DNA of 64,000 nt from Trypanosoma brucei (GCA_000002445.1 CP000069.1:160001-224000), one strand, 5' to 3'. Positions 43,201 through 64,000 are shown, counted from the stretch's first letter. Numbers and translations: made by a program. Notes: generated by a model not told the origin, from the sequence alone.

Positions 43201-43930
43201 GCCAACTGCGCGGTTGGATCCTAAAGTGTACAGTCGTTTGTGGAATGGCCTGCGTGTACGTGTTGGAATCCACACCGGGTTGTGCGACATCCGACACGAT
43301 GAAGTGACAAAGGGATATGACTACTATGGGCGGACTCCAAACATGGCAGCAAGGACGGAGAGTGTAGCAAATGGTGGTCAGGTGCTGATGACGCATGCGG
43401 CGTACATGTCACTGTCAGCTGAGGATCGTAAGCAAATTGATGTCACTGCACTTGGTGATGTTGCACTTCGCGGTGTGAGTGATCCGGTGGAAATGTACCA
43501 GTTGAATGCCGTGCCTGGCCGCAACTTTGCTGCATTACGGCTGGACCGCGAATACTTCTTTGATGAGGGCGAGGATGGCACGACAACCTCCACAAGCGAC
43601 CACAGTTCTTCACGTGCGGAGCTGAGTGAATCAGCTCAGATAATTGCAACTGCACTACAGTCGCTGTTAAGCACGTTCAAGACAGCACAGCGTGAGAAGT
43701 TGTTGCTGCCGTATTGTGAGCGTTGGCGTGTGCCTCTTCCCCGTAAAGCCGCATTCGAGTGGGATGACGCCTACTGTGAGGAAGTGGTGCGTCGCATTGC
43801 AGTTAAGGTTGGGCGTGTCGCTGACCATTGCGCTCATAGTGGAAGTGAGTCGTCAAGTACGCAAGGCAGTTCATCAATTATTATCGTCCCTCTTCACGAC
43901 CTGTACTGCCGTGAAAATTATTCTATTTAA
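40289..43930 (+). CDS. GRESAG4: receptor-type adenylate cyclase (GRESAG4/ESAG4 family), copy 2. The track ORF opens at 40172; the likely start is the ATG at 40289.
   Basis: A 1252-aa ORF about 90% identical to copy 1 through the extracellular, TM and catalytic domains. Its C-terminal tail (AELSESAQ...CERWRVPLPRKAAFEWDDAYCEEVVRRIAVKVGRVAD) matches the pseudogene-type tail, not the copy-1 tail. Confidence 0.9.
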   Translation: MYKHSPVITAVSLLHLFPLLLMWMPPVCAENGNVTVNVLSMMYSLGFTTPEVNAINAGFDASLSAHSWKTGSGATISVIRPSSPNATIEDIFQLGVKQSEGKLLVVFGPLGTNHVLKNSDELKKHDLVAIAPVAYSSEVRGWNPHLYFISVEPNAELLALIRYAVVYLRVPRISMMYEKDNTASMGAYEFTVRVLAMLGRHLCGVFVVKESENQNISEDDLNTRWRQFVATRPQAILLFSSLGNTAKWFIKKVAQDNRTANAYLLSTSLQQHFLIKMWREALVLANRTFTPEQLITTGTVPLANDNQSSLIQHFQRDMNNYLDTNSDWKGFAKPDHYLEDDGLGEMMVYGWLAGEVLFEALNNAPQLTNRKSFRESLYKQRRYVIDDLVVGDFGGECNEAVALQGAMCECNQGGSMVYMKSIMDGFRLRPLWEGFLTWGVSECSSANVQVSAPLSGLFVILVDNAIVFRATMRWFLGAQALDEAYDVDNRIFFHPLTVSSENVTQSLEQVRDNRDVSAVFGIVPAAMLDTPNMMFISPMVVGIRQNGFRRNVIHLLPVLAQQLYVLAVYLSNTSSRGVNAFIRGEQAGEISSLLYKSLVTFGVPLDSSKTLGDGDPVASYLSGNGDVFTIGLTLTDVAAVARHLQAHLRARVFVGFNDLAMYYDEFVAAFNASKESIASSERLLFATSFPHWAEKDTKSDVVASFHRIVNESHWDPLTFIGFVAARLLQVILPNMKKVNAELLADRIYTESNIKVDDMRFGPFSDVECVSGTSVSANECASNFGATNISVWSMARVLNSSLPRTQVGMTPSMDYVIPQEGQLTRSQIAGIGIGCVVGFILFIALGVLLRISLRNARDNNLAPKEPTDPVTLIFTDIESSTALWAAHPELMPDAVAAHHRMVRSLIGRYDCYEVKTVGDSFMIASKSPFAAVQLAQELQLCFLQHDWGTNAVDNSYRHFEEQCTEGECEYTPPTARLDPKVYSRLWNGLRVRVGIHTGLCDIRHDEVTKGYDYYGRTPNMAARTESVANGGQVLMTHAAYMSLSAEDRKQIDVTALGDVALRGVSDPVEMYQLNAVPGRNFAALRLDREYFFDEGEDGTTTSTSDHSSSRAELSESAQIIATALQSLLSTFKTAQREKLLLPYCERWRVPLPRKAAFEWDDAYCEEVVRRIAVKVGRVADHCAHSGSESSSTQGSSSIIIVPLHDLYCRENYSI

Positions 43931-44516
43931 CCGTCAGCTTCAGTTTCATAGCAGTGACATGTCCTGAGTGCTGCGGATATCGATGGTTTGGTAACTGCAC
44001 TGAGCACTCTATTGGCATAATGTAGAATATGTGTCATAAATAAACATAGTTTTTTGACTCTGTTTACGATTATTTTCTTTTTCCAATGTGTCCTAACATG
44101 TTATTATTTTTTCTTGTGTTCCCGTCTTTCGTTGCTCTCTCGTTTCGTAACACTATGTAATTCAGCTTCGATGTTCTATGTTTCTTTTTATTGCGTATGC
44201 CCGACTGTGATGTGAGCGCATCTGCAATGTTGATTATTTACATGTGGATATAGGGTTGCATCAGTGTGGCAAGAAATAACATATGTAACGATTGCGGTTT
44301 AGCATTTGTCGTTGATTTCATTTCCCTCTTTTACCTCCGTAGAAATGTGTATATGCACAAGCCTGTGGATGTGATAGCTGCTAGTGCTTTATTTATTATC
44401 ATGAAATAATTTTGTTTTTATTTGTTCTTGGTTGATCGACATAAATTTTTTCTTTTGTTTTTTTTTGTGTTTAGTGCTTACGGGATTTTCACCATCGAAT
44501 CGCTTTGTTTTTGATG

Positions 44517-44956
44517 CCCAATCCCGCAACCTTTTGGGTACAAAACTGTGTTTCCGTGTGTGTCTGCGTCACGTTTTTCTTTTTTTGAATCCACTTAATG
44601 CTAGCGATGTCTTTAAATATTTTTTCATAATGAGTGTTATGTTGCATGTGTGTTTGTATGTGTTGGGTGTTATGTGGGCTGTTGTATCTCTCTCTTCGGA
44701 TATACAACCCTTATCACCCTCTGCATTGCTGATGTTACATGTTGTTTCACCAGTTGCATGCTTTCTTTCCCTTCACTCATTTGTGTTGCCGTAAGGATTT
44801 AAGGTATGTGATTGCCTCCATTCCCTCCAGAGTGTGATGTCGATGCATGAGCTTAGTTATGTACTGAAACCCGCGTTGCCTCGCAGTATAACAAAGTTCC
44901 TTCACAGTCACAGTTATTGCAGCTTATACTAATTATAGTATTGTGAGGGAGTTTTG
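44517..44956 (+). repeat. partial GRESAG4-array spacer repeat (440 bp, equal to R1 positions 21-476)
   Basis: It begins 586 bp after the copy-2 stop. ORF 44432..44794 shares the MSVMLHVCLYVLGVMWAVVSL peptide with the other copies. Identity ends abruptly at 44957. Confidence 0.75.
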
Positions 44957-46149
44957 TAACACGTTTCCATATTGTTGGAGAAGTGGCGTATGCCGGAACG
45001 AGATGTTTGTGCAACTTTTGCCGTTGTTCTATCTTGTACAGTTCGTGTGCTGTTGTCTGAATGTTGCTGCTACGGTATGCCTAGTTGTGCGTTTGCCTTT
45101 TTTTGTCCGCGTCTTGCCTCTCTATTGGATTGAAAGCAGCAAAGTAGGGCCGCTGGTCTCATTAGCTGTTTTTTTAAAAATATTGCAATGGACTTAGAAT
45201 GCGTTGAGAAACTGCAAATGAGCGATTTGGTTGCTATATCTCTATGTATTGCTTCTGCTGCTGCTAAAACTCTGTTGAGTAATGGGGGGGGGTTCGTGCC
45301 AACAGCGGCTTCAGCTTGGGGCTGTTGTGTGTCCAACTTTGTTTGTTTACGTGTTGGTGATAACAAGGATGTGGTTAAGAATGTCTTTGCGTGGTGGTGC
45401 ACTTTCACACGTGTTACCATTGGGGATGTGGGAAGAGCGTGTTGTGGCGACTATAGATGATCACATTGGGAAAGTTGCTGCGCTAATTTGGAGGGGCGAC
45501 ACCGCTTATGTGCTGTTAAGGGCCGTAGGGGGCTTAAAACAAGGTGCTTAGTTAAGGTGACGGGGCTTTCCAAGTTCTTGAATGGTGCTGAGTGCTTATG
45601 CGTCTACCTTTACCCGCATGCTTTTGCCATGAACATTTTCTGGTGACGACATCTTGTGTGCTATGCGGAAGTGTGCTGCCGGTGCATTTCCATTTGTGGT
45701 ATAAGGCGTGTGTAATGACATCAGCGGTGTCATAAGGGGCGCGCCGGCGGTTACATGGTGCGAGTGCTTCCGCTGATTCTCACTGTCATTTGGCTTTAAG
45801 TGGTTTTCCCCCTTATTTCCCATTTCCTTAAGGTGCACTAAGCGACACAAAGTGGCAGGTGCGTTGCGTCCTCGGTAACAACTTGGATGTGCACTGGGGC
45901 GTGGCTGTTTGGTCGTGTCACCGGCTATGCAGCGCTCTGCTTTTGATGTTTTTTGTTTGCTCACTGCCCACTTGGATCTTCTGTTAAGCGAGGCATCCAC
46001 ACTAATAAATACTGAATGGCTATTTGAAAAATGAGCGTGGCTCTGCATGAAAGACTGCCTGAAAGGCACCTAACCTCAACCGTATGTGTGTGTGTGTATG
46101 TGTGCTCGTATTATTGTTTGGATAAGTGCTACCAAAATATTTCTGTTGT

Positions 46150-47458
<1,309 letters not shown>

Positions 47459-50400
47459 AAAAGACACCGTTTCTTCCAAAGACTGCGCGGGAGTTGCTCC
47501 TAAATTGCATTTCCTTCTCTCCTCGTAACATTAAGTGGTCGTGTTGTTGTTTTTTCTTCTTTCCTCTCGCGTGTGGAGGCGAGGCTGAAGACGAACTGCG
47601 GCGTCAGACTGCCAAGTGTGAGAAAGAGCGTGAAGTGGTGTGGGGATGATGCCAACGAAGATCTTTTTAATTTTTGGATGTGGGCTTACGTAGTTCGCTG
47701 GTAAATATACTTAAGATCTTTCTTTTTTTTTTTTGTTGTTGTATGTCTTTTTGATTTTGTTGTATTGATTGAATTATTCCCCTTGAGCTTTCTTGTCTTG
47801 TACGATACGTTGGCGAGAAGCTGGTTAAACGAAAACTTTGAAGGAAAAAAATGTGGGATGTGTTTGTGTCTGCTTGTGTGTGTAAACGTAATGGAGGCTT
47901 CCCCCCCCATTAGTGGCATGCATGCATTTCCGATGCCGACATGCGGTTTTCGGTGAGGGAACAATGCGCCTCACCGTATCATGTACCGTGAACTACAAGC
48001 CACAAAAATATGTGCTTGAATAGTAAGTCCTCCCAACTTCATTTCATGACCAGGAAATTAATCATGTCAAGCCATTGAGCAACTTTTTCTCTTCAGTGGT
48101 ATGCCTTTGTTCGTTTTCAAAAAAAAAAAGGAAGAATAAAGAGAAAGGGAGTGGGAAAACTTTTTTTTTTTTGCTACATGTGCCTTTTCTAGTGTGTGCG
48201 AGCGCCCGCTGCGAGGAATTGAGCTTTCTCCTTTCCTTCCTTTTCCTCCTTTCCCCTCTCTATGGATGAATCCAATTTAGGGTCCGCCGCTTTCTTGCTC
48301 GCTCCCGCCGTACGCAAAGGAATTATGCCGTTTACCTCAATCAGTTTTTTAGGGCGGCTTGTGGAAGTGCCTTCATCAGTACCGCTTACACCTTTGTTTC
48401 CCGGGTTAAACACACCTCCCGCGAAAAATAAATGAATAATAAATTCAGTTTATATTATATGTAATTATCCCAAGTGCGGCGGGTGGCTCTGCTGCCTTGA
48501 TGGAGAGCGGGCGGAGGTCCTTGTGAGGGTTTACAGCCGCCCTTTCAGTTTTTCTGTACTAACGTTCCTGCGGTGGAAATCATTCGCATTATCAGAGTAT
48601 TGTACGGTGTCTTAAGTTGATGTTTGCAGTAGCGGACCGGTGGACAAGACGAGCGAAGGTTCACCGCGCAAGGGCGAGAAAAAGCTTTCCCGCACGCTGA
48701 TTACAGCAGAAAACCTCACTTCTCCTCGGTCTACTTTAAAATCAATGTTGTCGACGCTCGGTTATTGTGACAGCGGGATTGCTTTTACAAGCAACACGTT
48801 GTCTTCTTTTTTTGTTTATTTCCTGTTGGGGTCCGTTGGAGTGGCGTTAAAGGCCTTGCTTTGGCGACAGGGCCGCCCAACAGGGTTTGGCTGGGGGCGT
48901 GACATCGCACTGGCGTCCATCACGTCCAGCGGGTTACTGGCGTGGTGAAGTCGCAGCTTTCTTTCAAGTGAGAATCCCCTGCTTGGCGGGAAAAAAATGG
49001 CTCTGCTTCTGATGGGAAAGGAGGAATTTTGTATTCTTTGACTTACTCCTGCGGTGATGTTGTGTTTGTGGTCCGCTTTTCAAGGGTGAGACCTCCGGGT
49101 TCTTAAACGGCACCATCCTCCCCGTTGGTCAGTTCTTTCGCGAAAAGGGTTTGTGTCCGCCGTGTTGGTTGCTGGATCGCCAACCCACAGAAGTTGCCGT
49201 TCCTCCACAGCATAGTTGTGTGAACAATGTTCCCCTTTGAGCAGATTAGCGTCGTCTCCATGCCTTGTTTCCTACTGCACCCGCTGCATTTGCATGCCTC
49301 AGTTGCGCAGTTAAGCATATCTTCATTCCTGTTTTCCGTGAGAGGCGAAGGGTTGCCGTGTCCTCAAGAGAGGTGTCCTTGAGGGTTGCAGTCTTTTACC
49401 GTGCTGGTTAGCTCCACGGCCTCCACCGAAAAGGGGAGAGCCCGAACGCTGGTTTCCCCATTTCCCCGTCTTTTCGATCAAGAACCCCTTGCTTTTAGTA
49501 GGTATTAGATCGGTAACTGGGAGATTGTAGCGGGTGTTCGTGTGTGGGGAGCGTTGCGCACTCGCACGGTTTTAAAATGGTTGTTATGTCAAAGCTGTTA
49601 TTTCCCTTTTGTTCACTATGCCATTTGTTAACCATCTTCCAGTTGTTTGTTATACTCCTATCGATGGATTGTCACTCCTTCAAATATGGTGCTGTAGTTT
49701 GAATACTCTCTTGGTGTGCCGCAAAGTGTGGGATACATAACGTGCCACAAGCTAGCGCTTCCAAGGGGGTTTAAACTCGGGAACTGTGAGTGTGAGTCTC
49801 GAACCAATGCGATGGTTCTGGTCTGCGCTGAAGGACATTTTATAGGGCCCCCGGATCCTCCCTGTGCCCAACTCGGTGATGCTGAGGTCGATGAATTCCT
49901 TCGTTCGCTACGAAACAAAGCATTGGGTTTGGTGGCATTTAGTGCGGTGCCTTCGATGGTGTTGTGCTTTCCTCTCCTGGAATGTGCTGGCTCGGGTTAA
50001 GATTTTAGCGGGTGCGGGGGAATGCGGCCCAACTTTTTTGCGCGAAATCTCTTGCATTGACTTGCCGCGTAACCCATGGTGGTTTCGTCAGCCTGGTAGG
50101 AGCTGAGACAGCAGCATAATGGGTGGATTCTCGTATCCATTCGTGTGGGCATGCTCCCCACTTGCATGGGTTCCATTTTTGAAACATTGGTGCACTGGGG
50201 GTGTGTTCCGTAGGAAGGGCCGCGCGGTTGGGGCTTTAAAAGCACGACTGTAACATCTATATAGTGAAGTGGCGGGTGTACGAGTTGGGAGTGCAACATT
50301 TGAGTGCGGTGTTTGTCCTGCATGCCCCCGACTGCTGGTTTTCAGACTTCTTCGATGCCCGGTGTTTCGTAGCAAAACATACCGCTGCCGGCCTAAATGC

Positions 50401-50649
50401 CGCTGATTCACCACAAAGTGCTTTTCAGTGCCCCCAAACTGGATTGCCAAACTTCTGACAAGTGTATTGTTCCGAGTATGGTGAGCGGACCCCTTCTCTA
50501 TTATCAATTCTCAAAAACTCTTCGGGAGTCAGGGCCCACGGAACCGAGGGGGCGGATGAGGGAGAGGGGGAAACAACAATTCCGCACCGCGAACAGGCAC
50601 CGCTCCCCTGGACCTCTTCCTCAGATGTGAGGTGCAGTCAGCCTTTGTT

Positions 50650-50975
50650 GTCATTGGGGTTAAGCGGAAAGGTGTGTGTCAGTAGGTTGTGAGGTGAAAG
50701 CGTTTTCAGATGCATAGTGAGCTTAATGTCCTTTTCACAGTATATCGTGTCTGATAGGTATCTCTTATTAGTATAGTCGAATACTAGTCAATAGTGCATT
50801 TTGTGCAAAATGTCCATTTTGTGGCAGTGATGGGGTTGCTTTATGCTATTCCGTGTCTTGATGGTCATACATTGAAAATAGGGGTTATCGGGTGAGTACT
50901 GAGTTTAACATGTTCTCGTGATCGCTGCACGCGCCTTCGAGTTTTTTTTCCTTTTCCCCATTTTTTTCAACTTGA
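50650..50975 (+). promoter_or_regulatory. candidate procyclin (RNA pol I) promoter and splice-acceptor region upstream of EP
   Basis: This is inference only. Procyclin units are known to be driven by a pol I promoter within a few hundred bp upstream of the first EP gene. A polypyrimidine tract ('gagttttttttccttttccccatttttttcaacttgaag') lies at 50936-50975. The exact promoter elements were not identified. Confidence 0.25.
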
Positions 50976-51008
50976 AGACTTCAATTACACCAAAAAGTAA
51001 AATTCACA

Positions 51009-51392
51009 ATGGCACCTCGTTCCCTTTATCTGCTCGCTATTCTTCTGTTCAGCGCGAACCTCTTCTCTGGCGTGGGATTTGCCGCAGCCGCTGAAGGACC
51101 AGAAGACAAGGGTCTTACTAAGGGAGGCAAAGGCGGGAAGGGAACCAAGGTCAGCGACGACGATACCAATGGCACTGACCCTGACCCCGACCCCGAACCT
51201 GAACCTGAACCTGAACCTGAACCTGAACCTGAACCCGAACCCGAACCTGAACCTGAACCGGAACCTGAACCTGAACCCGAACCTGAACCGGAACCCGAAC
51301 CCGAACCTGAACCTGAACCTGGTGCTGCAACGCTGAAGTCTGTTGCGCTTCCGTTCGCAATTGCGGCCGTTGGTCTCGTTGCCGCATTCTAA
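51009..51392 (+). CDS. EP: EP procyclin (procyclic-form surface coat protein), copy 1. It is 127 aa with DPDPDP, 21 Glu-Pro repeats and an N-glycosylation site NGT.
   Basis: It reads [19 protein letters not shown]... signal, [27 protein letters not shown](EP)21[26 protein letters not shown] signal. This is the textbook EP procyclin. Having the NGT site with about 20 EP repeats resembles the EP3/EP1 classes. Confidence 0.9.
51176..51320 (+). repeat. (GAACCT/GAACCC)n hexamer repeat encoding the EP dipeptide tract
   Basis: Seen directly in the sequence. The unit-2 copy at about 58595-58727 is 12 bp shorter. Confidence 0.9.
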
Positions 51393-51600
51393 GCTCATGT
51401 AAAGAGAAATCTTTTTGGAGGGTCAAAACTTTTTAACAAGGGTGACCCCAACTGTTTATTTAACCCTTCCTTTGGCGCGATGCGCTCGCTTCATGGTGTT
51501 CCTTTGTGACAGGACACTGACACGCATAATATTTTTTTCAACCCATTTTTTTGAGTTCTATTTTTTGTTTTATGTCTTGGAACCGTCGGCGGTAGCACGC
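51393..51600 (+). promoter_or_regulatory. EP 3' UTR with U-rich elements (candidate stage-regulatory 3' UTR)
   Basis: U-rich stretches ('cataatatttttttcaacccatttttttgagttctattttttgttttatg') lie immediately downstream of the stop. Procyclin 3' UTRs are known to carry U-rich and stem-loop regulatory elements. The specific elements were not verified. Confidence 0.3.
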
Positions 51601-52362
51601 AGCCCTGTAGACTTCTGCGTGTGCCTGTCAATGTGTTCCTTGGCTCTTTTCAAACGGCTTCTTTTATCTTACCGTTCATATGGTTTTGTCAAAAATTCAT
51701 CCACTGCATTTGTGGTCCTCTCCTATGTCTCGTTCCTGCAATGGTTGACAGCAACCTCTTCCATTTGTGACTGAACTTTTTTTTTTTCAAACTTTTTGCC
51801 TTGTCCTTTTTTCGTACTGGGAAAATAGTTCCTTCTAAAACCTCAGGCTAGAAATGGGAGACAAATGGACTTTTGTTGACTCAAGCGATTTGTCCCTCGA
51901 TATTTCCGCCATCGCAGCTTCCGTTTGACACCGTGGAGTTGCAACATGGGAAGCAGCGGTTGAAGGAAGCACATTCCTGGTGATGATGCCTTCTTCGCCT
52001 ACGGTGGTGCATCATCATGTTTGTTAATATGTCGGGGAAACTTTAAAGCACCTTGAGGGAGTTCACCGTAACTGTTCAAAATTGAGGCCTGAGCGGTGTT
52101 TTGCCTTTTGACTTGCCTTTATTTAACTGTTCTCGTCAGGGGAGCGATTCAGTTGAGTGAGCTGCTGCCACTTTATCTGTTGGGGAGGAGAGGCTGCGGA
52201 GAGGGTAAGCGCGTTGTTTCCATGAACTTTACGTATTTACTGCACTGCCCTCTGTTTTGGTCCACTTTGTGAAATACTCTGGGACAATCAATGGAGAGTG
52301 TGAGATTTTTTGAAATACTTCTGGAGCATTCACCGGCTCGTCGGTCGTCATATGTTCTCGCA

Positions 52363-52500
52363 GTGTTTTCTCTCCCATATTCTTCGGGGCGGTATTGCAG
52401 TGAAAGTGCCATGCGGGACGCGTGTCAGAGCAGTGTTTGTCTCCCATATTCTTCGGGGCGGTATTGCAGTGAAAGTGCCATGCGGGACGCGTGTCAGAGC
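52363..52500 (+). repeat. 69-bp direct tandem duplication (x2) in the EP-to-PAG-like intergenic/UTR region; also present at 59770-59907
   Basis: The sequence 'tctcccatattcttcggggcggtattgcagtgaaagtgccatgcgggacgcgtgtcagagcagtgtttg' occurs twice back to back. Confidence 0.85.
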
Positions 52501-53252
52501 AGTGTTTGATGTTCCGGAAGTCTTCGGAGTTAGAGGGCAAATGCTCCTCTTCTCCTTTCGTGCGGCGTGATTCTCATACCGAGGCTTCCACTAAGCAGGC
52601 TGCAACTCTTCTGCTGACTTTTTGGTTTATTCTTTTCCCATATTTCAGTGTTGGAGTGTTTCTCTTGCCGCCCTTGGGAATCGGGCACAGTCATATGAAG
52701 GCGCTTGCTTCGGCAGCCAAAGGTGGTTCCGTTTGGTATTTCTTGTGGAGACATTTGTCTTCCTTTCCTTTTCGGCCACCTCTTTTCCCATGGAGAAAGG
52801 CCTCTGGTACTGTCCTGCCCGATGATCTTTGCCCCGTTCGTTCCATCATGAATAATAGTTACAAAAGTGTGTGTCGGTACGGCGGTGGATATTTCCCCAA
52901 TCGCTTTGGTTGCTTTTACTATTTTGTGGGGCGGTTTAAAGTTGGTAACTCAGTGCACTTCCAAAAAAATTGCGACTCGTACATTTGGTTTTATATGGAG
53001 GGTGGAAGAGCCGAAAACGTGTATGTGCTTGCTTGGATGAGTCGGAAAATAAATTCTAGTTTCCGTGTATTTTCCCTTCATTACGTCATATATGGCTTGG
53101 CCTTTAGATTTGTGTAAGGTATGTTTCTTTTCGAAGTTGGTATGCTGGCGGACGTGTTTGTTTAATGTAAATCAGCCAAGGTGTAAGAGTAGCTGTAATG
53201 ATAAGTTTCTGCTTCTCCCTTTTTTACTGATGAATGTAGAAACAAAATCACA

Positions 53253-54626
53253 ATGAGGCACGAATTAGTGTTTACCATTGGGTTGTTTGTGGCTGTTTTA
53301 TCTGATTCTTCTCAGATATTTTTGCCGCACTGGCGCGATTGGATCCAGGTATCTAAAAACGGGAGTATACTTACAACTCTCGTTAGTGAAGTCAACAACC
53401 ACCACAGCATTGGTGAATTCGAGGCACTTTGCAAGATTTACAGAATCACACAAGCGGAGACCCCGAAGCCTTCCTTTAAGAATCGTGAGAAGGAAGCTGA
53501 GATTCTGAAGAAGTTGGAGGAAATGGTCAGTGAAACTGAGGCTGTGGGTGGTGATAAAGGTTCAAGTAAGTTGGGTAAAAGAACGACGGCATATCAGGAG
53601 ATAAAGATACTTTTTGAGAAGGCGAAAAAGCTGAAGGAAGAAATAGAAGTGAATAGGACAAGATCGCTAAATGCAAGTCGTTCTGCTGAGGAAAATATGT
53701 TGAGAGCTGTGTATGGCGACGCTGTGGATGTGGCGAGAAATGAAAATAAAACTCTGGAGGAAGCCATGAGAGGAAACAAATCACTACTGTTCAACAGTGT
53801 TGATCATGCAAATATGAGTTGTGGTTCTTACGGAGACAAACTGGTTGGAAAGACACTGATCAATGACTTTTTCTGCCTATGTGTGGGAGAGGCGACAGAT
53901 TTACAAATAAGAAGCAATAAGTATTATGCACTCGACTTAAACTCAACTAATCACACTGTGTATAATGGGTTTAACTGTCCCTGCAAGGATGAAATAAGGA
54001 GACCTAAACATGGAAGTTGGACTATGATGGCTGATTATTGCCCAAGCAACTATAATACTTGCGACCCTAGAAAGGTAAAATACAACCATACTGAGGCATG
54101 GGATGTGATTAGTAAAGCTTGCGTGTACAAAAATGTTGCATCGAATGTGAAAACTCTGAAGAGTGCACTAGCTCAGTTTGATGCGTTGGTGAATTTAGAG
54201 CAGGATAATTATCAAATGAAGGGTATTCTTGGGTACGCGGATATTTCAGAAAACACAAATCGCATCTGCAACGGTTATACTGCTGGATTCACGTGTGTCA
54301 GTTACAATTACACACTTGAAAATGGTGGAATTCCATGGTACAACCGCCTCACTAACGCCACCAAGGAACTACAAGAAATGGCGAAGTATGCCAAAGAAGC
54401 TGACAGTCATCTTTACGAATTGGAAGAGTACCAACATGAGGCAGAGGAAATATATCTTGAAGTGAAACTTGGTGGTGATGCAGAGCTATGGAAGAGTAGC
54501 CGAGGTAAAGGCGAAGGTGACGGTGAAGGTGATGATACTGATGTAAATAATGATGGGCTCAACTATATAAATATTACAACTGACTTTCTTATATTATTGT
54601 TTTCATCTTTTATTTGTATATCTTAG
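53253..54626 (+). CDS. GPI-anchored surface protein immediately downstream of EP: procyclin-associated-gene (PAG)-like or GRESAG2-like, copy 1
   Basis: A 457-aa ORF with an N-terminal signal peptide (MRHELVFTIGLFVAVLSDSSQ), a Cys-containing ectodomain with many N-glycosylation sites, an acidic G/E/D-rich linker and a C-terminal hydrophobic GPI-type signal (ITTDFLILLFSSFICIS). Its position mirrors that of the PAG genes in known procyclin loci. The family call is by position and architecture only. Confidence 0.45.
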   Translation: MRHELVFTIGLFVAVLSDSSQIFLPHWRDWIQVSKNGSILTTLVSEVNNHHSIGEFEALCKIYRITQAETPKPSFKNREKEAEILKKLEEMVSETEAVGGDKGSSKLGKRTTAYQEIKILFEKAKKLKEEIEVNRTRSLNASRSAEENMLRAVYGDAVDVARNENKTLEEAMRGNKSLLFNSVDHANMSCGSYGDKLVGKTLINDFFCLCVGEATDLQIRSNKYYALDLNSTNHTVYNGFNCPCKDEIRRPKHGSWTMMADYCPSNYNTCDPRKVKYNHTEAWDVISKACVYKNVASNVKTLKSALAQFDALVNLEQDNYQMKGILGYADISENTNRICNGYTAGFTCVSYNYTLENGGIPWYNRLTNATKELQEMAKYAKEADSHLYELEEYQHEAEEIYLEVKLGGDAELWKSSRGKGEGDGEGDDTDVNNDGLNYINITTDFLILLFSSFICIS

Positions 54627-55200
54627 TTTGTGATTAATTTGGTAATTGCTTTGTGTGGTGTCGCTTTTTTTTTTTCTTTGTGGAGGGGAGGAGGAGGGAT
54701 GTTGTATTTGTGTGCAGTTGTTTTCAAATTAATTATAAATTTGGTAACAAAAATTTCTGCAAATGTTGCTTTTGACTGTGTTTGAGCGTGGCTGTTGGGA
54801 CGTTGACGGGGAATCGCCACGGCAGGGTCATTTCCCGAGAGGGTGCCGATACGTTGTGTTACTTTTTCATTTTCACATCGCGCAAGGATATGGGTATGCT
54901 ACTATTAACAAATCATTTAGCTCCTATCTAGTACGCTCCGCTGCGGCAGAAAAATAAGGGGCCACGAGCCAAATTCTATGTGTCTACGAGCACTGTCAGC
55001 CTTCCAAGGACTCTCGGATCTCTATCGCAGCGAGTTTAGGTTAAAAGTGGGATGAAGAACTCCTCCTTCTGCTTGTTCCGGCCGAACATAGAGGCGTGAC
55101 GGCAGCTCCTTCGTTTCCATCCACGGAGGACACAACATTCGCTGAATTATCTCTTAATGGAGCGTTTTTTTGTTTTTAAGTGTAAAATAACTGTCTGGTG

Positions 55201-55217
55201 TATATATATATATATAT
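55201..55217. repeat. (TA)8 microsatellite; second copy at 62609-62625
   Basis: Seen directly in the sequence. Confidence 0.9.
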
Positions 55218-58200
55218 TGACTGAAAGAAGGAGTCGAGAGCGTCTTTTCCGAGTGCACTTTTCTCCGGCGGATCTCCCACTAACCTGTGGCGTAGGGCTA
55301 TGGCTCCCAAAACACGTGTAAACACTACTGTATGATGTGGGTTATCGTGTTCATTGGCGTGGTAGTACTCTTTAATCCAGCGTATTCCATGTTTGATGTC
55401 ATTGTGTATTTAGAAGCCCACTTTGGAGTAGATCCTTATCCCGGCCTCGGAGGGGATACTGCACACAGTTGCAACGCGTTGACGATGGAGCTCAGGGGCG
55501 CTGTTGGTTAGGTTTTCAAGTTTTGGAGTGACCCAATCTGTGTATTTTCTAGAGCTGAACCGTTAAGCTGCTGAGGGATGCATATTTATGCGGTCACTGT
55601 TAACTTCAGATGAGTTGTTCATCTGCTGAAGCCGTTTCCCCGGACGGTGGCTCTTTATCTCCCTATGTGTTATCCTGGCTTCACTTTGTAAGGCCGCTGC
55701 CTTCACTAGGTTTGTTTTCCTGGTGTCTGACCCTTTTCTGTGGAGGTATCCCGCCTTTCAATTTGCTTGCGATGTTGCATTCCCTGAACTGTGGCGGATT
55801 TGATTCTGTAGCCTTTTCCGTTGGGAGAGCCAAACTCTCAGTCATTCTCCAACCCTGTGTTTCACCACTTGTTTTTACTTTGTTTTTATACCTTCGTTTG
55901 ATTCTGTAATTTTCGTTGCGCGTTTAGTCTGCGCCTACTCCGCTCTCACTGTTTATCTTCAGTTACTTGCTCACAGAAAGTCTGAGCAGATTCGTGGCAG
56001 CTTGTTCCCACTTTACGCATTTATCGACGGGCAAATTCTCGTTACCCTGCGAAGGTGCTCTGGGACTTGGTAAGTAATCAGCTTCTTTTGCTGGCACAAC
56101 ATTTCGGTTTGTTTCAGTAGCTTGGTGACGAGACGTTTTATCACCATCTGGGTTTTACTGTTTCTCGCCTGTGTCTACGTGGCCGTTGTTTTGTGGCTTA
56201 ACCGTCCCTCTGGACTGAATGTTTGAAGCTATATTCATGAAGAACTGCGCGAGTTCCACGTATTGGTTCCTTCCTTTTCTGTTCCACTGCGCTCATCAAC
56301 CCCATTCCTTCTCATCCTTGGTGTCCTCGAGTTTTTGGAGGAAGTGCCTGATCGTCTCTCGGTATTCTGTTCTTCCGTTGTTGCGAACCTCCCTTCACTT
56401 CCCTTCCCGACTGTGCACTATTTTTTGTTTTTGCACCACGTAAGTCTGGCTTGTCTGAGGAGTTTCAAATATTACCCTGAACGCCGCCTGCTTTCCGTTG
56501 TTATGTTCCACCTCTTTGTGCCTCCATCCGTAGTTGTTCCTGGGGCGATGACAATTCCAGGATCGTGCTACCGTGTGTGCGTTAGATTACCGCCCCCTGC
56601 ATCAAGTAGGACATACTGAATCCGCGAAGGCTCTCCGGCTTTCGTGAGGTGTTTCTAGCAACTATCACCTTTGTTTCTTCAACTTCTTGATTTATTGTCT
56701 TTTACTCATCTATTATCTCCCTTTTCTTTAGGTCCTGCATGTCAAAAAGTATACTGTCATATTGGGCGGGAAATCATATCATAACTGTGGTATGGTTTTG
56801 AGGGTTGCAGTCTTTTACCGTGCTGGTTAGCTCCACGGCCTCCACCGAAAAGGGGAGAGCCCGAACGCTGGTTTCCCCATTTCCCCGTCTTTTCGATCAA
56901 GAACCCCTTGCTTTTAGTAGGTATTAGATCGGTAACTGGGAGATTGTAGCGGGTGTTCGTGTGTGGGGAGCGTTGCGCACTCGCACGGTTTTAAAATGGT
57001 TGTTATGTCAAAGCTGTTATTTCCCTTTTGTTCACTATGCCATTTGTTAACCATCTTCCAGTTGTTTGTTATACTCCTATCGATGGATTGTCACTCCTTC
57101 AAATATGGTGCTGTAGTTTGAATACTCTCTTGGTGTGCCGCAAAGTGTGGGATACATAACGTGCCACAAGCTAGCGCTTCCAAGGGGGTTTAAACTCGGG
57201 AACTGTGAGTGTGAGTCTCGAACCAATGCGATGGTTCTGGTCTGCGCTGAAGGACATTTTATAGGGCCCCCGGATCCTCCCTGTGCCCAACTCGGTGATG
57301 CTGAGGTCGATGAATTCCTTCGTTCGCTACGAAACAAAGCATTGGGTTTGGTGGCATTTAGTGCGGTGCCTTCGATGGTGTTGTGCTTTCCTCTCCTGGA
57401 ATGTGCTGGCTCGGGTTAAGATTTTAGCGGGTGCGGGGGAATGCGGCCCAACTTTTTTGCGCGAAATCTCTTGCATTGACTTGCCGCGTAACCCATGGTG
57501 GTTTCGTCAGCCTGGTAGGAGCTGAGACAGCAGCATAATGGGTGGATTCTCGTATCCATTCGTGTGGGCATGCTCCCCACTTGCATGGGTTCCATTTTTG
57601 AAACATTGGTGCACTGGGGGTGTGTTCCGTAGGAAGGGCCGCGCGGTTGGGGCTTTAAAAGCACGACTGTAACATCTATATAGTGAAGTGGCGGGTGTAC
57701 GAGTTGGGAGTGCAACATTTGAGTGCGGTGTTTGTCCTGCATGCCCCCGACTGCTGGTTTTCAGACTTCTTCGATGCCCGGTGTTTCGTAGCAAAACATA
57801 CCGCTGCCGGCCTAAATGCCGCTGATTCACCACAAAGTGCTTTTCAGTGCCCCCAAACTGGATTGCCAAACTTCTGACAAGTGTATTGTTCCGAGTATGG
57901 TGAGCGAATCCCTTCTCTATTATCAATTCTCGAAAACTCTTCGGGAGTCAGGGCCCACGGAACCGAGGGGGCGGATGAGGGAGAGGGGGAAACAACAATT
58001 CCGCACCGCGAACAGGCACCGCTCCCCTGGACCTCTTCCTCAGATGTGAGGTGCAGTCAGCCTTTGTTGTCATTGGGGTTAAGCGGAAAGGTGTGTGTCA
58101 GTAGGTTGTGAGGTGAAAGCGTTTTCAGATGCATAGTGAGCTTAATGTCCTTTTCACAGTATATCGTGTCTGATAGGTATCTCTTATTAGTATAGTCGAA

Positions 58201-58427
58201 TACTAGTCAATAGTGCATTTTGTGCAAAATGTCCATTTTGTGGCAGTGATGGGGTTGCTTTATGCTATTCCGTGTCTTGATGGTCATACATTGAAAATAG
58301 GGGTTATCGGGTGAGTACTGAGTTTAACATGTTCTCGTGATCGCTGCACGCGCCTTCGAGTTTTTTTTCCTTTTCCCCATTTTTTTCAACTTGAAGACTT
58401 CAATTACACCAAAAAGTAAAATTCACA

Positions 58428-58799
58428 ATGGCACCTCGTTCCCTTTATCTGCTCGCTATTCTTCTGTTCAGCGCGAACCTCTTCTCTGGCGTGGGATTTG
58501 CCGCAGCCGCTGAAGGACCAGAAGACAAGGGTCTTACTAAGGGAGGCAAAGGCGGGAAGGGAACCAAGGTCAGCGACGACGATACCAATGGCACTGACCC
58601 CGACCCCGAACCTGAACCTGAACCTGAACCTGAACCTGAACCCGAACCCGAACCTGAACCTGAACCGGAACCTGAACCTGAACCCGAACCTGAACCGGAA
58701 CCCGAACCCGAACCTGAACCTGAACCTGGTGCTGCAACGCTGAAGTCTGTTGCGCTTCCGTTCGCAATTGCGGCCGTTGGTCTCGTTGCCGCATTCTAA
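58428..58799 (+). CDS. EP: EP procyclin, copy 2 (123 aa; one fewer DP and one fewer EP than copy 1)
   Basis: Identical to copy 1 apart from repeat-tract length. Confidence 0.9.
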
Positions 58800-60659
58800 G
58801 CTCATGTAAAGAGAAATCTTTTTGGAGGGTCAAAACTTTTTAACAAGGGTGACCCCAACTGTTTATTTAACCCTTCCTTTGGCGCGATGCGCTCGCTTCA
58901 TGGCGTTCCTTTGTGACAGGACACTGACACGCATAATATTTTTTTCAACCCATTTTTTTGAGTTCTATTTTTTGTTTTATGTCTTGGAACCGTCGGCGGT
59001 AGCACGCAGCCCTGTAGACTTCTGCGTGTGCCTGTCAATGTGTTCCTTGGCTCTTTTCAAACGGCTTCTTTTATCTTACCGTTCATATGGTTTTGTCAAA
59101 AATTCATTCACTGCATTTGTGGTCCTCTCCTATGTCTCGTTCCTGCAATGGTTGACAGCAACCTCTTCCATTTGTGACTGAACTTTTTTTTTTTCAAACT
59201 TTTTGCCTTGTCCTTTTTTCGTACTGGGAAAATAGTTCCTTCTAAAACCTCAGGCTAGAAATGGGAGACAAATGGACTTTTGTTGACTCAAGCGATTTGT
59301 CCCTCGATATTTCCTCCATCGCAGCTTCCGTTTGACACCGTGGAGTTGCAACATGGGAAGCAGCGGTTGAAGGAAGCACATTCCTGGTGATGATGCCTTC
59401 TTCGCCTACGGTGGTGCATCATCATGTTTGTTAATATGTCGGGGAAACTTTAAAGCACCTTGAGGGAGTTCACCGTAACTGTTCAAAATTGAGGCCTGAG
59501 CGGTGTTTTGCCTTTTGACTTGCCTTTATTTAACTGTTCTCGTCAGGGGAGCGATTCAGTTGAGTGAGCTGCTGCCACTTTATCTGTTGGGGAGGAGAGG
59601 CTGCGGAGAGGGTAAGCGCGTTGTTTCCATGAACTTTACGTATTTACTGCACTGCCCTCTGTTTTGGTCCACTTTGTGAAATACTCTGGGACAATCAATG
59701 GAGAGTGTGAGATTTTTTGAAATACTTCTGGAGCATTCACCGGCTCGTCGGTCGTCATATGTTCTCGCAGTGTTTTCTCTCCCATATTCTTCGGGGCGGT
59801 ATTGCAGTGAAAGTGCCATGCGGGACGCGTGTCAGAGCAGTGTTTGTCTCCCATATTCTTCGGGGCGGTATTGCAGTGAAAGTGCCATGCGGGACGCGTG
59901 TCAGAGCAGTGTTTGATGTTCCGGAAGTCTTCGGAGTTAGAGGGCAAATGCTCCTCTTCTCCTTTCGTGCGGCGTGATTCTCATACCGAGGCTTCCACTA
60001 AGCAGGCTGCAACTCTTCTGCTGACTTTTTGGTTTATTCTTTTCCCATATTTCAGTGTTGGAGTGTTTCTCTTGCCGCCCTTGGGAATCGGGCACAGTCA
60101 TATGAAGGCGCTTGCTTCGGCAGCCAAAGGTGGTTCCGTTTGGTATTTCTTGTGGAGACATTTGTCTTCCTTTCCTTTTCGGCCACCTCTTTTCCCATGG
60201 AGAAAGGCCTCTGGTACTGTCCTGCCCGATGATCTTTGCCCCGTTCGTTCCATCATGAATAATAGTTACAAAAGTGTGTGTCGGTACGGCGGTGGATATT
60301 TCCCCAATCGCTTTGGTTGCTTTTACTATTTTGTGGGGCGGTTTAAAGTTGGTAACTCAGTGCACTTCCAAAAAAATTGCGACTCGTACATTTGGTTTTA
60401 TATGGAGGGTGGAAGAGCCGAAAACGTGTATGTGCTTGCTTGGATGAGTCGGAAAATAAATTCTAGTTTCCGTGTATTTTCCGTTCATTACGTCATATAT
60501 GGCTTGGCCTTTAGATTTGTGTAAGGTATGTTTCTTTTCGAAGTTGGTATGCTGGCGGACGTGTTTGTTTAATGTAAATCAGCCAAGGTGTAAGAGTAGC
60601 TGTAATGATAAGTTTCTGCTTCTCCCTTTTTTACTGATGAATGTAGAAACAAAATCACA

Positions 60660-62033
60660 ATGAGGCACGAATTAGTGTTTACCATTGGGTTGTTTGTGGC
60701 TGTTTTATCTGATTCTTCTCAGATATTTTTGCCGCACTGGCGCGATTGGATCCAGGTATCTAAAAACGGGAGTATACTTACAACTCTCGTTAGTGAAGTC
60801 AACAACCACCACAGCATTGGTGAATTCGAGGCACTTTGCAAGATTTACAGAATCACACAAGCGGAGACCCCGAAGCCTTCCTTTAAGAATCGTGAGAAGG
60901 AAGCTGAGATTCTGAAGAAGTTGGAGGAAATGGTCAGTGAAACTGAGGCTGTGGGTGGTGATAAAGGTTCAAGTAAGTTGGGTAAAAGAACGACGGCATA
61001 TCAGGAGATAAAGATACTTTTTGAGAAGGCGAAAAAGCTGAAGGAAGAAATAGAAGTGAATAGGACAAGATCGCTAAATGCAAGTCGTTCTGCTGAGGAA
61101 AATATGTTGAGAGCTGTGTATGGCGACGCTGTGGATGTGGCGAGAAATGAAAATAAAACTCTGGAGGAAGCCATGAGAGGAAACAAATCACTACTGTTCA
61201 ACAGTGTTGATCATGCAAATATGAGTTGTGGTTCTTACGGAGACAAACTGGTTGGAAAGACACTGATCAATGACTTTTTCTGCCTATGTGTGGGAGAGGC
61301 GACAGATTTACAAATAAGAAGCAATAAGTATTATGCACTCGACTTAAACTCAACTAATCACACTGTGTATAATGGGTTTAACTGTCCCTGCAAGGATGAA
61401 ATAAGGAGACCTAAACATGGAAGTTGGACTATGATGGCTGATTATTGCCCAAGCAACTATAATACTTGCGACCCTAGAAAGGTAAAATACAACCATACTG
61501 AGGCATGGGATGTGATTAGTAAAGCTTGCGTGTACAAAAATGTTGCATCGAATGTGAAAACTCTGAAGAGTGCACTAGCTCAGTTTGATGCGTTGGTGAA
61601 TTTAGAGCAGGATAATTATCAAATGAAGGGTATTCTTGGGTACGCGGATATTTCAGAAAACACAAATCGCATCTGCAACGGTTATACTGCTGGATTCACG
61701 TGTGTCAGTTACAATTACACACTTGAAAATGGTGGAATTCCATGGTACAACCGCCTCACTAACGCCACCAAGGAACTACAAGAAATGGCGAAGTATGCCA
61801 AAGAAGCTGACAGTCATCTTTACGAATTGGAAGAGTACCAACATGAGGCAGAGGAAATATATCTTGAAGTGAAACTTGGTGGTGATGCAGAGCTATGGAA
61901 GAGTAGCCGAGGTAAAGGCGAAGGTGACGGTGAAGGTGATGATACTGATGTAAATAATGATGGGCTCAACTATATAAATATTACAACTGACTTTCTTATA
62001 TTATTGTTTTCATCTTTCATTTGTATATCTTAG
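60660..62033 (+). CDS. PAG-like or GRESAG2-like GPI-anchored surface protein, copy 2 (identical 457 aa)
   Basis: Identical translation to 53253..54626. Confidence 0.45.
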   Translation: MRHELVFTIGLFVAVLSDSSQIFLPHWRDWIQVSKNGSILTTLVSEVNNHHSIGEFEALCKIYRITQAETPKPSFKNREKEAEILKKLEEMVSETEAVGGDKGSSKLGKRTTAYQEIKILFEKAKKLKEEIEVNRTRSLNASRSAEENMLRAVYGDAVDVARNENKTLEEAMRGNKSLLFNSVDHANMSCGSYGDKLVGKTLINDFFCLCVGEATDLQIRSNKYYALDLNSTNHTVYNGFNCPCKDEIRRPKHGSWTMMADYCPSNYNTCDPRKVKYNHTEAWDVISKACVYKNVASNVKTLKSALAQFDALVNLEQDNYQMKGILGYADISENTNRICNGYTAGFTCVSYNYTLENGGIPWYNRLTNATKELQEMAKYAKEADSHLYELEEYQHEAEEIYLEVKLGGDAELWKSSRGKGEGDGEGDDTDVNNDGLNYINITTDFLILLFSSFICIS

Positions 62034-64000
62034 TTTGTGATTAATTTGGTAATTGCTTTGTGTGGTGTCGCTTTTTTTTTTTCTTTGTGGAGGGGAGGAG
62101 GAGGGATGTTGTATTTGTGTGCAGTTGTTTTCAAATTAATTATAAATTTGGTAACAAAAATTTCTGCAAATGTTGCTTTTGACTGTGTTTGAGCGTGGCT
62201 GTTGGGACGTTGACGGGGAATCGCCACGGCAGGGTCATTTCCCGAGAGGGTGCCGATACGTTGTGTTACTTTTTCATTTTCACATCGCGCAAGGATATGG
62301 GTATGCTACTATTAACAAATCATTTAGCTCCTATCTAGTACGCTCCGCTGCGGCAGAAAAATAAGGGGCCACGAACAAAATTCTATGTGTCTACGAGCAC
62401 TGTCAGCCTTCCAAGGACTCTCGGATCTCTATCGCAGCGAGTTTAGGTTAAAAGTGGGATGAAGAACTCCTCCTTCTGCTTGTTCCGGCCGAACATAGAG
62501 GCGTGACGGCAGCTCCTTCGTTTCCATCCACGGAGGACACAACATTCGCTGAATTATCTCTTAATGGAGCGTTTTTTTGTTTTTAAGTGTAAAATAACTG
62601 TCTGGTGTATATATATATATATATTGACTGAAAGAAGGAGTCGAGAGCGTCTTTTCCGAGTGCACTTTTCTCCGGCGGATCTCCCACTAACCTGTGGCGT
62701 AGGGCTATGGCTCCCAAAACACGTGTAAACACTACTGTATGATGTGGGTTATCGTGTTCATTGGCGTGGTAGTACTCTTTAATCCAGCGTATTCCATGTT
62801 TGATGTCATTGTGTATTTAGAAGCCCACTTTGGAGTAGATCCTTATCCCGGCCTCGGAGGGGATACTGCACACAGTTGCAACGCGTTGACGATGGAGCTC
62901 TGGGGCGCTGTTGGTTAGGTTTTCAAGTTTTGGAGTGACCCAATCTGTGTATTTTCTAGAGCTGAACCGTTAAGCTGCTGAGGGATGCATATTTATGCGG
63001 TCACTGTTAACTTCAGATGAGTTGTTCATCTGCTGAAGCCGTTTCCCCGGACGGTGGCTCTTTATCTCCCTATGTGTTATCCTGGCTTCACTTTGTAAGG
63101 CCGCTGCCTTCACTAGGTTTGTTTTCCTGGTGTCTGACCCTTTTCTGTGGAGGTATCCCGCCTTTCAATTTGCTTGCGATGTTGCATTCCCTGAACTGTG
63201 GCGGATTTGATTCTGTAGCCTTTTCCGTTGGGAGAGCCAAACTCTCAGTCATTCTCCAACCCTGTGTTTCACCACTTGTTTTTACTTTGTTTTTATACCT
63301 TCGTTTGATTCTGTAATTTTCGTTGCGCGTTTAGTCTGCGCCTACTCCGCTCTCACTGTTTATCTTCAGTTACTTGCTCACAGAAAGTCTGAGCAGATTC
63401 GTGGCAGCTTGTTCCCACTTTACGCATTTATCGACGGGCAAATTCTCGTTACCCTGCGAAGGTGCTCTGGGACTTGGTAAGTAATCAGCTTCTTTTGCTG
63501 GCACAACATTTCGGTTTGTTTCAGTAGCTTGGTGACGAGACGTTTTATCACCATCTGGGTTTTACTGTTTCTCGCCTGTGTCTACGTGGCCGTTGTTTTG
63601 TGGCTTAACCGTCCCTCTGGACTGAATGTTTGAAGCTATATTCATGAAGAACTGCGCGAGTTCCACGTATTGGTTCCTTCCTTTTCTGTTCCACTGCGCT
63701 CATCAACCCCATTCCTTCTCATCCTTGGTGTCCTCGAGTTTTTGGAGGAAGTGCCTGATCGTCTCTCGGTATTCTGTTCTTCCGTTGTTGCGAACCTCCC
63801 TTCACTTCCCTTCCCGACTGTGCACTATTTTTTGTTTTTGCACCACGTAAGTCTGGCTTGTCTGAGGAGTTTCAAATATTACCCTGAACGCCGCCTGCTT
63901 TCCGTTGTTATGTTCCACCTCTTTGTGCCTCCATCCGTAGTTGTTCCTGGGGCGATGACAATTCCAGGATCGTGCTACCGTGTGTGCGTTAGATTACCGC

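Follow-up and report, generated by a model that had tools for sequence, protein, structure and literature searches.

The window, i.e., the whole analyzed stretch of 64,000 nucleotides, is part of chromosome 6 of Trypanosoma brucei brucei TREU927, and the region described here is the left two-thirds of its procyclin array, genes Tb927.6.450 to Tb927.6.500. Exact protein matches between the window and TREU927 chromosome 6 entries were found for the haptoglobin-haemoglobin receptor (HpHbR), M20 peptidase, LRRP, GRESAG2 (two accessions), and PAG3 (two accessions). Gene identifiers and names were recovered for Tb927.6.450,.480,.510,.520, and.530. Accessions AAZ11608 to AAZ11618 are consecutive and agree with a gene order of HpHbR; EP, PAG3, GRESAG2; EP, PAG3, GRESAG2; GPEET, EP, PAG3, GRESAG2. 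The literature and this accession order indicate three units, of which the third, with the canonical form GPEET-EP3-PAG3-GRESAG2, lies just beyond the window. The features are listed in Table 1.

Table 1. Features of the procyclin array and of the gene ahead of it, in positions of the window.
Feature	Position	Strand	Details
HpHbR gene, Tb927.6.440	46247..47458	+	exact match to AAZ11608.1; Pfam HpHbR, 339.6 bits
Tandem unit 1	49379..56797	+	promoter region, EP3, PAG3, GRESAG2, 2.17-kb tail
30-bp boundary repeat, left edge of unit 1	49379..49408	+	TTGAGGGTTGCAGTCTTTTACCGTGCTGGT; 2 occurrences in the window
Pol I promoter-proximal region copy of the GPEET/PAG3 locus, unit 1	50600..50952	+	approximate limits; by homology
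142-bp tract identical in GPEET and EP3	50953..51094	+	polypyrimidine/splice-acceptor region, 5'UTR, signal-peptide codons; by alignment
EP3 procyclin gene, unit 1	51009..51392	+	Tb927.6.450 by gene order; 127 aa, DPx3, EPx21, NGT sequon
69-bp tandem repeat	52360..52508	+	2.1 copies; abuts the PAG3 ATG upstream
PAG3, unit 1	52509..53117	+	202 aa; AAZ11610.1 assigned by accession order
GRESAG2, unit 1	53253..54626	+	457 aa; AAZ11611.1 assigned by accession order
Unit tail 3' of GRESAG2, unit 1	54627..56797	+	2171 bp; mostly 98-100% identical to L004
Tandem unit 2	56798..64000	+	cut by the window edge ~200 bp short of its end
30-bp boundary repeat, unit 1/unit 2 junction	56798..56827	+	
EP3 procyclin gene, unit 2	58428..58799	+	Tb927.6.480 by gene order; 123 aa, DPx2, EPx20, NGT sequon
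PAG3, unit 2	59916..60524	+	202 aa; AAZ11613.1 assigned by accession order
GRESAG2, unit 2	60660..62033	+	457 aa; AAZ11614.1 assigned by accession order

The HpHbR gene is the final gene ahead of the procyclin array. The assignment of this 403-aa upstream gene as BARP/GARP-like was rejected by the exact protein match and the Pfam domain.

The tandem organization was recognized by self-BLAST and MAFFT alignment. In self-BLAST, 49379-56593 was aligned with 56798-64000 over 7215 columns at 99.68% identity with gaps counted. The MAFFT alignment of unit 1 with unit 2 showed 12 substitutions and one 12-bp indel (51189-51200), i.e., approximately 99.8% identity. A 7.4-kb unit, repeated at least 1.9 times at about 99.8% identity, had been claimed by an earlier sequence-only reading of the window, and both searches bear this out, with approximately 1.97 units counted. 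The period is 7419 bp ahead of the indel and 7407 bp past it, which is not substantively different from the published 7402 bp (Jackson 2010). The divergence from unit to unit is 0.17%. Allelic variation could also give values in this range.

The EP open reading frame (ORF) of unit 1 was recognized by Pfam as PF05887, Trypan_PARP, with 236.7 bits (cut-off 100) and residues 1-127 covered. In both EP proteins, the NGT site that the earlier reading had pointed out is present, at residues 54-56 preceding the EP repeat, and the hydrophobic C-terminus is a predicted GPI signal. The 12-bp indel accounts for three DP and 21 EP dipeptides in unit 1 versus two and 20 in unit 2, exactly the polymorphism that had been described. 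The 3' flank of EP3 also has SNPs between the units, at 51497, 51701, and 51908. The genes are orthologous in position to EP3; i.e., window 50950-52439 aligned at 97% nucleotide identity with the EP gene downstream of GPEET in loci L004 and L003. Exact matches for the two window EP proteins were not found in the protein collection, and the gambiense and equiperdum EP proteins were likewise missing from it. This absence is uninformative and is no sign of a different assembly. Among procyclins, the homology search with the EP protein returned only the GPEET type, amid many unrelated Glu/Pro-rich proteins.

The second gene of each unit is PAG3, which the sequence-only reading had missed. It had described the unit as one EP gene plus one 457-aa gene, and both of these are present. 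The two PAG3 ORFs together are an exact match to AAZ11610.1 and AAZ11613.1, i.e., procyclin associated gene 3, and the copies are one residue apart (L/V; position 53076 versus 60483). The 69-bp repeat ahead of PAG3 has one copy fewer in T. b. gambiense, T. b. equiperdum, and Logan contigs. All PAG3-bearing Logan contigs (L001, L002, and L005-L007) end 92 bp upstream of PAG3 at this repeat, and they stop short of EP3, promoter, and junction.

The 457-aa gene had been considered PAG-like, and this assignment fails. The sequence is identical to the deposited AAZ11611.1 and AAZ11614.1, and its sole Pfam match was PF13206, VSG_B, with 84.5 bits (cut-off 25). An exact match to a known protein was therefore found, but to GRESAG2 and not to a PAG. 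The protein showed 65-72% identity to ESAG2 and ESAG-like proteins over 97-100% of length, 91% to the third TREU927 GRESAG2, and 78% to GRESAG 2.1 (Berberof et al. 1991; Q03849) across the 251-aa fragment of the latter. Judged by these matches, it is an ESAG2-like GRESAG2 with a VSG_B domain and not a PAG. The VSG_B domain is common to ESAG2 of the VSG bloodstream expression sites; however, ESAG2 sits in the telomeric VSG expression site, whereas the 457-aa gene sits in a chromosome-internal procyclin unit. The proteins of units 1 and 2 are identical, with one synonymous change in the genes (54611 versus 62018). Compared with the single-copy locus, the centre of the gene is strongly diverged, with 75-82% nucleotide identity at 53869-54350, and the amino-acid identity to the gambiense protein is 75% overall. 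The functions of the PAGs and GRESAG2 were stated as unknown by Carnes 2015.

The canonical chromosome 6 site, i.e., promoter, GPEET, EP3, PAG3, GRESAG2.1, and terminator, is known from AnTat1.1/EATRO1125, T. b. gambiense DAL972, and T. b. equiperdum. It has the same position as the window array, directly downstream of HpHbR, and the same EP3, PAG3, GRESAG2 order and 30-bp flanking repeats, and its promoter flank is 98.5-99% identical to the window units. However, the canonical site has GPEET and is single-copy, whereas units 1 and 2 are without GPEET and in tandem. The window units also differ by the extra 69-bp repeat copy before PAG3 and by a variant patch in the promoter. No GPEET ORF was found in units 1 and 2, and the ORFs bear out the claim of a single EP gene per unit, unlike the two-procyclin locus. 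The locus had been called non-canonical, which is right for this arrangement but not as a claim of novelty, as it is the published reference locus Tb927.6.450-.500.

Over 1.63 kb upstream of EP, each unit is colinear with the GPEET-promoter flank of L004 and L003 and not with the GPEET-EP3 spacer. In unit 2, 56798-58513 equals the 1.7-kb region preceding the gambiense GPEET. Because the upstream flank in both units is the GPEET-promoter flank, each unit has, at the sequence level, its own promoter-region copy, and homology would predict that each copy fires. The 495 bp upstream of the EP ATG are identical in units 1 and 2, and further upstream the SNPs at 50488, 50490, and 50513 tell the units apart. 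A variant patch at 50859-50869, i.e., five substitutions and a 2-bp deletion, together with a substitution at 50839, was found in both promoter copies. It was not found in the gambiense or equiperdum GPEET promoters, nor in published Lister 427 EP1-promoter guide sequences. The patch aside, the GPEET flanks of gambiense and equiperdum are nearly the same as the window sequence over the 450 bp ahead of the ATG. For an EP1-upstream primer, a site with one mismatch is present in the window. The patch lies approximately 140-150 bp upstream of the EP ATG, presumably in or near the core promoter, and it could change or abolish promoter function.

The unit junctions fall precisely on the 30-bp repeat, and the junction homology is exactly 30 bp. 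In T. b. gambiense and T. b. equiperdum, where the locus is single-copy, the same 30-mer is found on both sides of it. At k=31, a 30-mer shared in this way would interrupt the assembly of a single-copy and an amplified strain alike. T. b. gambiense and window 44000-51094 are colinear, at 99%, to 86 nt inside GPEET, where the alignment switches to EP3. The switch is at the 142-bp tract, with a GPEET-type flank upstream and an EP3-type ORF downstream. Nothing in the window corresponds to L004 10087-11189, the GPEET body and GPEET-EP3 spacer. It is reasonable to consider the 142-bp tract as the crossover interval that deleted GPEET.

From these features, a history of the array can be proposed. 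In TREU927, the whole RNA polymerase I (Pol I) expression site (promoter, GPEET, EP3, PAG3, GRESAG2) has been amplified in tandem, which would have come about by unequal crossover between the 30-bp direct repeats found on either side of the single-copy site of other Trypanozoon. GPEET would then have been lost from the two upstream units by recombination within the 142-bp tract, which placed EP3 directly behind the promoter and 5' flank of GPEET. A second, very recent duplication of the GPEET-less unit is probable, because the two copies are 99.8% identical. The likely outcome is three promoter-driven EP3 genes per one GPEET gene on this haplotype. Taken as a whole, i.e., the TREU927 chromosome 6 array, its amplified promoter-bearing units, and this history, we hold the explanation to be highly probable.

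The promoter copies of units 1 and/or 2 might instead be inactive, with the array as one long transcription unit. Expression of the internal EP3 genes would then depend entirely on read-through that started at an upstream promoter or in the Pol II unit ending at HpHbR. The patch lies inside the region that published guide RNAs target as 'EP1 promoter' (overlap at 50845-50881), which would suit this reading. Pol I terminator elements are placed 2-3 kb downstream of GRESAG2.1 in Haenni 2009 (citing Berberof 1996), and the 2.17-kb unit tail may hold only part of them. With a tail of this length, Pol I read-through between units is possible, and read-through past procyclin loci under perturbation is documented in the literature. 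However, apart from the patch, the promoter flank is nearly that of the gambiense and equiperdum GPEET genes. Moreover, only the same promoter copy lies upstream of unit 1, so that dead copies would leave the upstream pair silent. Abundant transcripts are reported for Tb927.6.450 and.480, though the reads assigned to them multi-map with Tb927.6.520. A single long unit is unlikely in our view.

The tandem could also be an assembly artefact, in which two alleles, or repeated reads, of one EP3/PAG3/GRESAG2 unit were wrongly set in a row. The locus is single-copy in the assemblies of T. b. gambiense DAL972, T. b. equiperdum, and EATRO1125, and in AnTat1.1 by Southern blot (Haenni 2006, as cited in Carnes 2015), and allelic heterozygosity is compatible with the divergence of the units. 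However, the units meet in a specific, novel join on a natural repeat of 30 bp, which is so far below the Sanger read length that reads must have crossed it. The units are also distinguished by 12 sites and the EP repeat length. The array proteins all have clone-level accessions in the narrow range AAX79580-AAX79604, which suggests a single cloned haplotype. In Carnes 2015, the T. evansi read coverage of the locus was much reduced relative to TREU927, and Jackson 2010 regarded the segmental duplication at the array as genuine. No evidence of misassembly was seen in the sequence of the array at the reference EP locus, and an artefact appears very improbable. The reading of a novel procyclin locus and a new PAG-like gene, for which one procyclin gene per unit instead of two might speak, can hardly be credited against the exact matches to annotated reference genes, the ESAG2/VSG_B rather than PAG family of the 457-aa protein, and the earlier publication of the array (Carnes 2015, Jackson 2010).

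The window array is thus the known EP3/PAG3/GRESAG2 procyclin surface-coat array, which is triplicated, annotated, and published; the repeat is real and is not a discovery. It is the same object as the TREU927 annotation Tb927.6.450-.540 (Carnes 2015, Jackson 2010), with identical PAG3 and GRESAG2 proteins, although the window covers only the first 1.97 units of the full three-copy array. Jackson 2010 (Table 1) listed Tbg972.6.140-170 and a T. b. brucei repeat unit of 7402 bp with 4 genes in 3 copies. Carnes 2015 described the TREU927 locus as a triplication of EP3/PAG3/GRESAG2, and the EP gene there was called EP3. Little is new in an array that stands in the annotated reference genome and was twice described in comparative-genomics papers. 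In the literature examined on the array, no description of the junction repeat, the 142-bp tract, or the promoter patch was found.

Beyond the proposed amplification of promoter-bearing units, two further roles may be considered together. The 30-bp repeats could act as recombination handles that make the copy number of the Pol I unit variable among strains, and the patch promoter could be a distinct variant driving the GPEET-less units of TREU927. This pair of proposals is tentative and rather doubtful. If it is true, the patch would mark a separate class of procyclin promoter for EP3 in TREU927, with different regulation and weaker or stronger activity, and the EP3:GPEET ratio and its timing in the tsetse fly would shift.

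The EP/PAG1 and EP/PAG2 loci of chromosome 10 (EP1-EP2-PAG1-PAG5-PAG2-PAG4) are likewise Pol I-transcribed procyclin units. They have two EP genes per unit and PAG1, 2, 4, and 5, without GRESAG2, whereas the window units on chromosome 6 have one EP gene, PAG3, and GRESAG2. The promoters are highly similar, with 94.5% identity between the core promoters of EP1 and GPEET (PMC4747651).

The repeat has a practical meaning for expression studies. In TREU927 quantification, Tb927.6.450,.480, and.520 (EP3) and the three copies each of PAG3 and GRESAG2 multi-map. One unit is reported for AnTat1.1/EATRO1125, and Lister 427 is said only to differ. Because the TREU927 copies multi-map and the strains in common use have a single unit, any per-gene count or dosage inference depends on the reference. 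For ChIP, TSS, and RNA data, the 30-bp junction repeat, the 142-bp tract, the promoter copy of each unit, the patch, and the unit-specific SNPs provide copy markers.

The locus was placed by exact sequence matches on chromosome 6 (1,618,915 bp) of T. brucei brucei TREU927. The haptoglobin-haemoglobin receptor (HpHbR) directly upstream of the array was an exact protein match, and so were, in the exact-sequence look-up, an M20 peptidase and an LRR protein farther left in the window. The sequence-only reading had taken the locus as novel. This does not hold, because the region is the annotated and published TREU927 procyclin array. For T. b. brucei, Jackson et al. 2010 (PMC2854126, Table 1) reported a repeat unit of 7402 bp with four genes in three copies (entry Tbg972.6.140-170), and Carnes et al. 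and Naguleswaran et al. are likewise cited as prior descriptions. The unit count is thus answered by the literature as three, with a third, canonical unit (GPEET-EP3-PAG3-GRESAG2) just past the window. The accessions AAZ11608 to AAZ11618 run consecutively and agree with the gene order HpHbR; EP, PAG3, and GRESAG2 (twice); GPEET, EP, PAG3, and GRESAG2. The genes are named in papers as procyclin PARP A (Tb927.6.450), EP3-2 (Tb927.6.480 and.520), GPEET (Tb927.6.510), and PAG3 (Tb927.6.530). What is new here is confined to sequence-level details, i.e., the junction repeat, the deletion tract, the presence of a promoter copy in each unit, and the patch of promoter variants.

Genes and boundary repeats of the two procyclin units in the window
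Feature	Position	Length (aa)	Remark
HpHbR, Tb927.6.440	46247-47458		directly upstream of array; exact protein match
30-mer, copy 1	49379-49408		left edge of unit 1
EP procyclin ORF, unit 1	51009-51392	127	DPx3/EPx21, NGT sequon
PAG3, unit 1	52509-53117	202	between EP and GRESAG2
GRESAG2, unit 1	53253-54626	457	
30-mer, copy 2	56798-56827		unit 1/unit 2 junction
EP procyclin ORF, unit 2	58428-58799	123	DPx2/EPx20, NGT sequon
PAG3, unit 2	59916-60524	202	between EP and GRESAG2
GRESAG2, unit 2	60660-62033	457	

Pfam placed the EP ORF in the family Trypan_PARP (236.7 bits); for the 457-aa ORF, the family was VSG_B (84.5 bits). The 457-aa protein has the same sequence as AAZ11611.1 and AAZ11614.1 (GRESAG2, putative). 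It showed 65-72% identity to ESAG2 and ESAG-like proteins, 78% to GRESAG 2.1, and 91% to the third TREU927 GRESAG2 (454 aa). From these relatives, the protein is therefore ESAG2-related and no PAG, and its earlier description as PAG-like was refuted by the exact match, the domain, and the ESAG2 relatives. The gene content read from the sequence, an EP gene and a 457-aa gene per unit, was right for these two genes, but PAG3 between them had been overlooked. The 202-aa ORFs of both units match AAZ11610.1 and AAZ11613.1 (procyclin associated gene 3) exactly.

By self-BLAST, 49379-56593 was aligned to 56798-64000 over 7215 columns with 11 mismatches and four gap openings. The repeat finder put repeat starts 7419 and 7407 bp apart, and approximately 1.97 units lie in the window. 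In global alignment, 12 substitutions set the units apart, together with one 12-bp indel (51189-51200), i.e., approximately 99.8% identity. The self-BLAST, the global alignment, and the ORFs in both units bear out the single-EP tandem units of about 7.4 kb, their identity, the EP repeat-length polymorphism with its exact counts, and the NGT sequon in both copies, all as first read from the sequence.

The counterparts in T. b. gambiense DAL972 (region L004) and T. b. equiperdum (L003) have one unit each, i.e., HpHbR followed by GPEET, EP3, PAG3, and GRESAG2. Unit 1 showed about 98-100% identity to these loci over most of its length, except for the EP repeat, an extra 69-bp copy, the promoter patch, and the GRESAG2 centre. 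In BLAST, window 44000-51094 was colinear with L004 2983-10086 (99%), a stretch covering the adenylate cyclase gene, HpHbR, the whole GPEET upstream region, and the first 86 nt of the GPEET ORF. The 1.7 kb upstream of GPEET (L004 8367-10086) was also aligned to unit 2 (56798-58513), and the EP3 gene region (L004 11190-12678) to window 50950-52439. By multiple alignment, both units are of the GPEET 5' flank type upstream of 50953, not of the GPEET-EP3 spacer type, and of the EP3 type, not GPEET, downstream of 51094. In the 142 bp between, which hold the splice-acceptor region, 5'UTR, and signal-peptide codons, GPEET and EP3 are the same. GPEET was probably deleted by homologous recombination inside this tract. 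The sole change within the tract is a codon at 51066 (and 58485), which gives Ser (LFSGVG) in the signal peptide of both window EP3 genes; in T. b. gambiense and T. b. equiperdum, GPEET and EP3 have Ala (LFAGVG).

The 30-bp sequence TTGAGGGTTGCAGTCTTTTACCGTGCTGGT was found on both sides of the single gambiense locus (L004 8367-8396 upstream and 16986-17015 downstream) and of the equiperdum locus (L003 8370-8399 and 16952-16981). The homology between the flanking copies is exactly 30 bp. In three Trypanozoon genomes, the entire procyclin expression site lies between copies of this exact direct repeat, of which no mention was found in the accessible papers. The array probably originated by unequal crossover between the flanking repeats. 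An assembly artefact of a single unit is very improbable as its source. All other strains or assemblies examined have a single unit, and the divergence between units 1 and 2 falls within the range of allelic variation. However, the join between the units is specific and falls on a natural 30-bp repeat, shorter than a Sanger read, and 12 sites as well as the EP repeat length distinguish the two units. The array proteins also all have clone-level accessions in a narrow range (AAX79580-79604), suggesting one cloned haplotype. Duplication of the GPEET-less unit looks recent, given the 99.8% identity of units 1 and 2 against an identity of only 91% between their GRESAG2 and the third TREU927 copy. 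The split of the GPEET-less from the GPEET-bearing unit would be older, or would come from another haplotype.

A single promoter heads each procyclin locus in the literature, and the core promoters of GPEET and EP1 were reported to be 94.5% identical (PMC4747651). In BLAST and multiple alignment, GPEET-promoter flank makes up the 1.63 kb ahead of each EP gene, and the 495 bp preceding the ATG do not differ between units 1 and 2. A published primer said to lie upstream of EP1's 5'UTR was located at 50749-50776 with one mismatch. At the sequence level, each unit has its own promoter copy. Both copies carry a variant patch at 50859-50869 (unit 2, 58278-58288) in which five bases are substituted and 2 bp deleted over a stretch of 11 bp, accompanied by a substitution at 50839. 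The window has tctt--gatggtcatacattg, versus tctctgggtgggcgtgcattg in the otherwise about 99% identical gambiense/equiperdum GPEET flank. Published Lister 427 EP1-promoter guide RNA sequences have the gambiense-type version, so the window patch was judged the unusual one. The PARP promoter literature (Sherman 1991, Brown 1992, and Janz and Clayton 1994) reportedly places the start site about 110-120 nt upstream of the ATG. The patch would then presumably sit in or near core domain I. Given the patch and this position, activity of both promoter copies is only plausible. Terminator elements were reported 2-3 kb downstream of GRESAG2.1 (Haenni 2009), and the unit tail after GRESAG2 is 2171 bp; at these distances, some read-through between units is possible.

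The GRESAG2 centre (53869-54350) showed 75-82% nucleotide identity to the gambiense/equiperdum orthologues, with flanks of 96-100%, and the protein was 75% identical to the gambiense copy. The variation looks like a mosaic of the gene-conversion type; such a pattern would be compatible with rapid evolution or with gene conversion involving further members of the ESAG2 family. Just before PAG3, a 69-bp sequence is repeated in tandem 2.1 times (52360-52508; unit 2, 59767-59915), the repeat ending right at the ATG. One copy fewer than in the window is present in T. b. gambiense, T. b. equiperdum, and the Logan contigs, and the Logan contigs carrying PAG3 all break at this repeat. In these contigs (L001, L002, and L005-L007; runs ERR7929156-64), a PAG3 with the same sequence as that of unit 2 is followed by a GRESAG2 broken into two ORFs of 194 and 251 aa. 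The 251-aa ORF matches the database entry for GRESAG 2.1 (Q03849) exactly; in that strain, the classic entry therefore corresponds to a gene that is disrupted or partial.

Segmental duplications form a patchwork in the left 45 kb of the window. Truncated adenylate-cyclase ORFs of 575 aa lie in a 4.9-kb inverted repeat (7215-12100 and 22413-27304), whose arms are 98.7% identical. Between these arms, a 316-aa gene encoding an IGP-family C-type lectin domain (DUF5075) is present as a tandem pair (19096-22348) with a period of 1491 bp and 99.9% identity. Two full-length genes for GRESAG4-like receptor-type adenylate cyclases, at 2327-6154 and 40172-43930, share 93% identity over 3.7 kb, and shorter related segments were found at 1-2050 and 11367-13415, and at 44516-44965.
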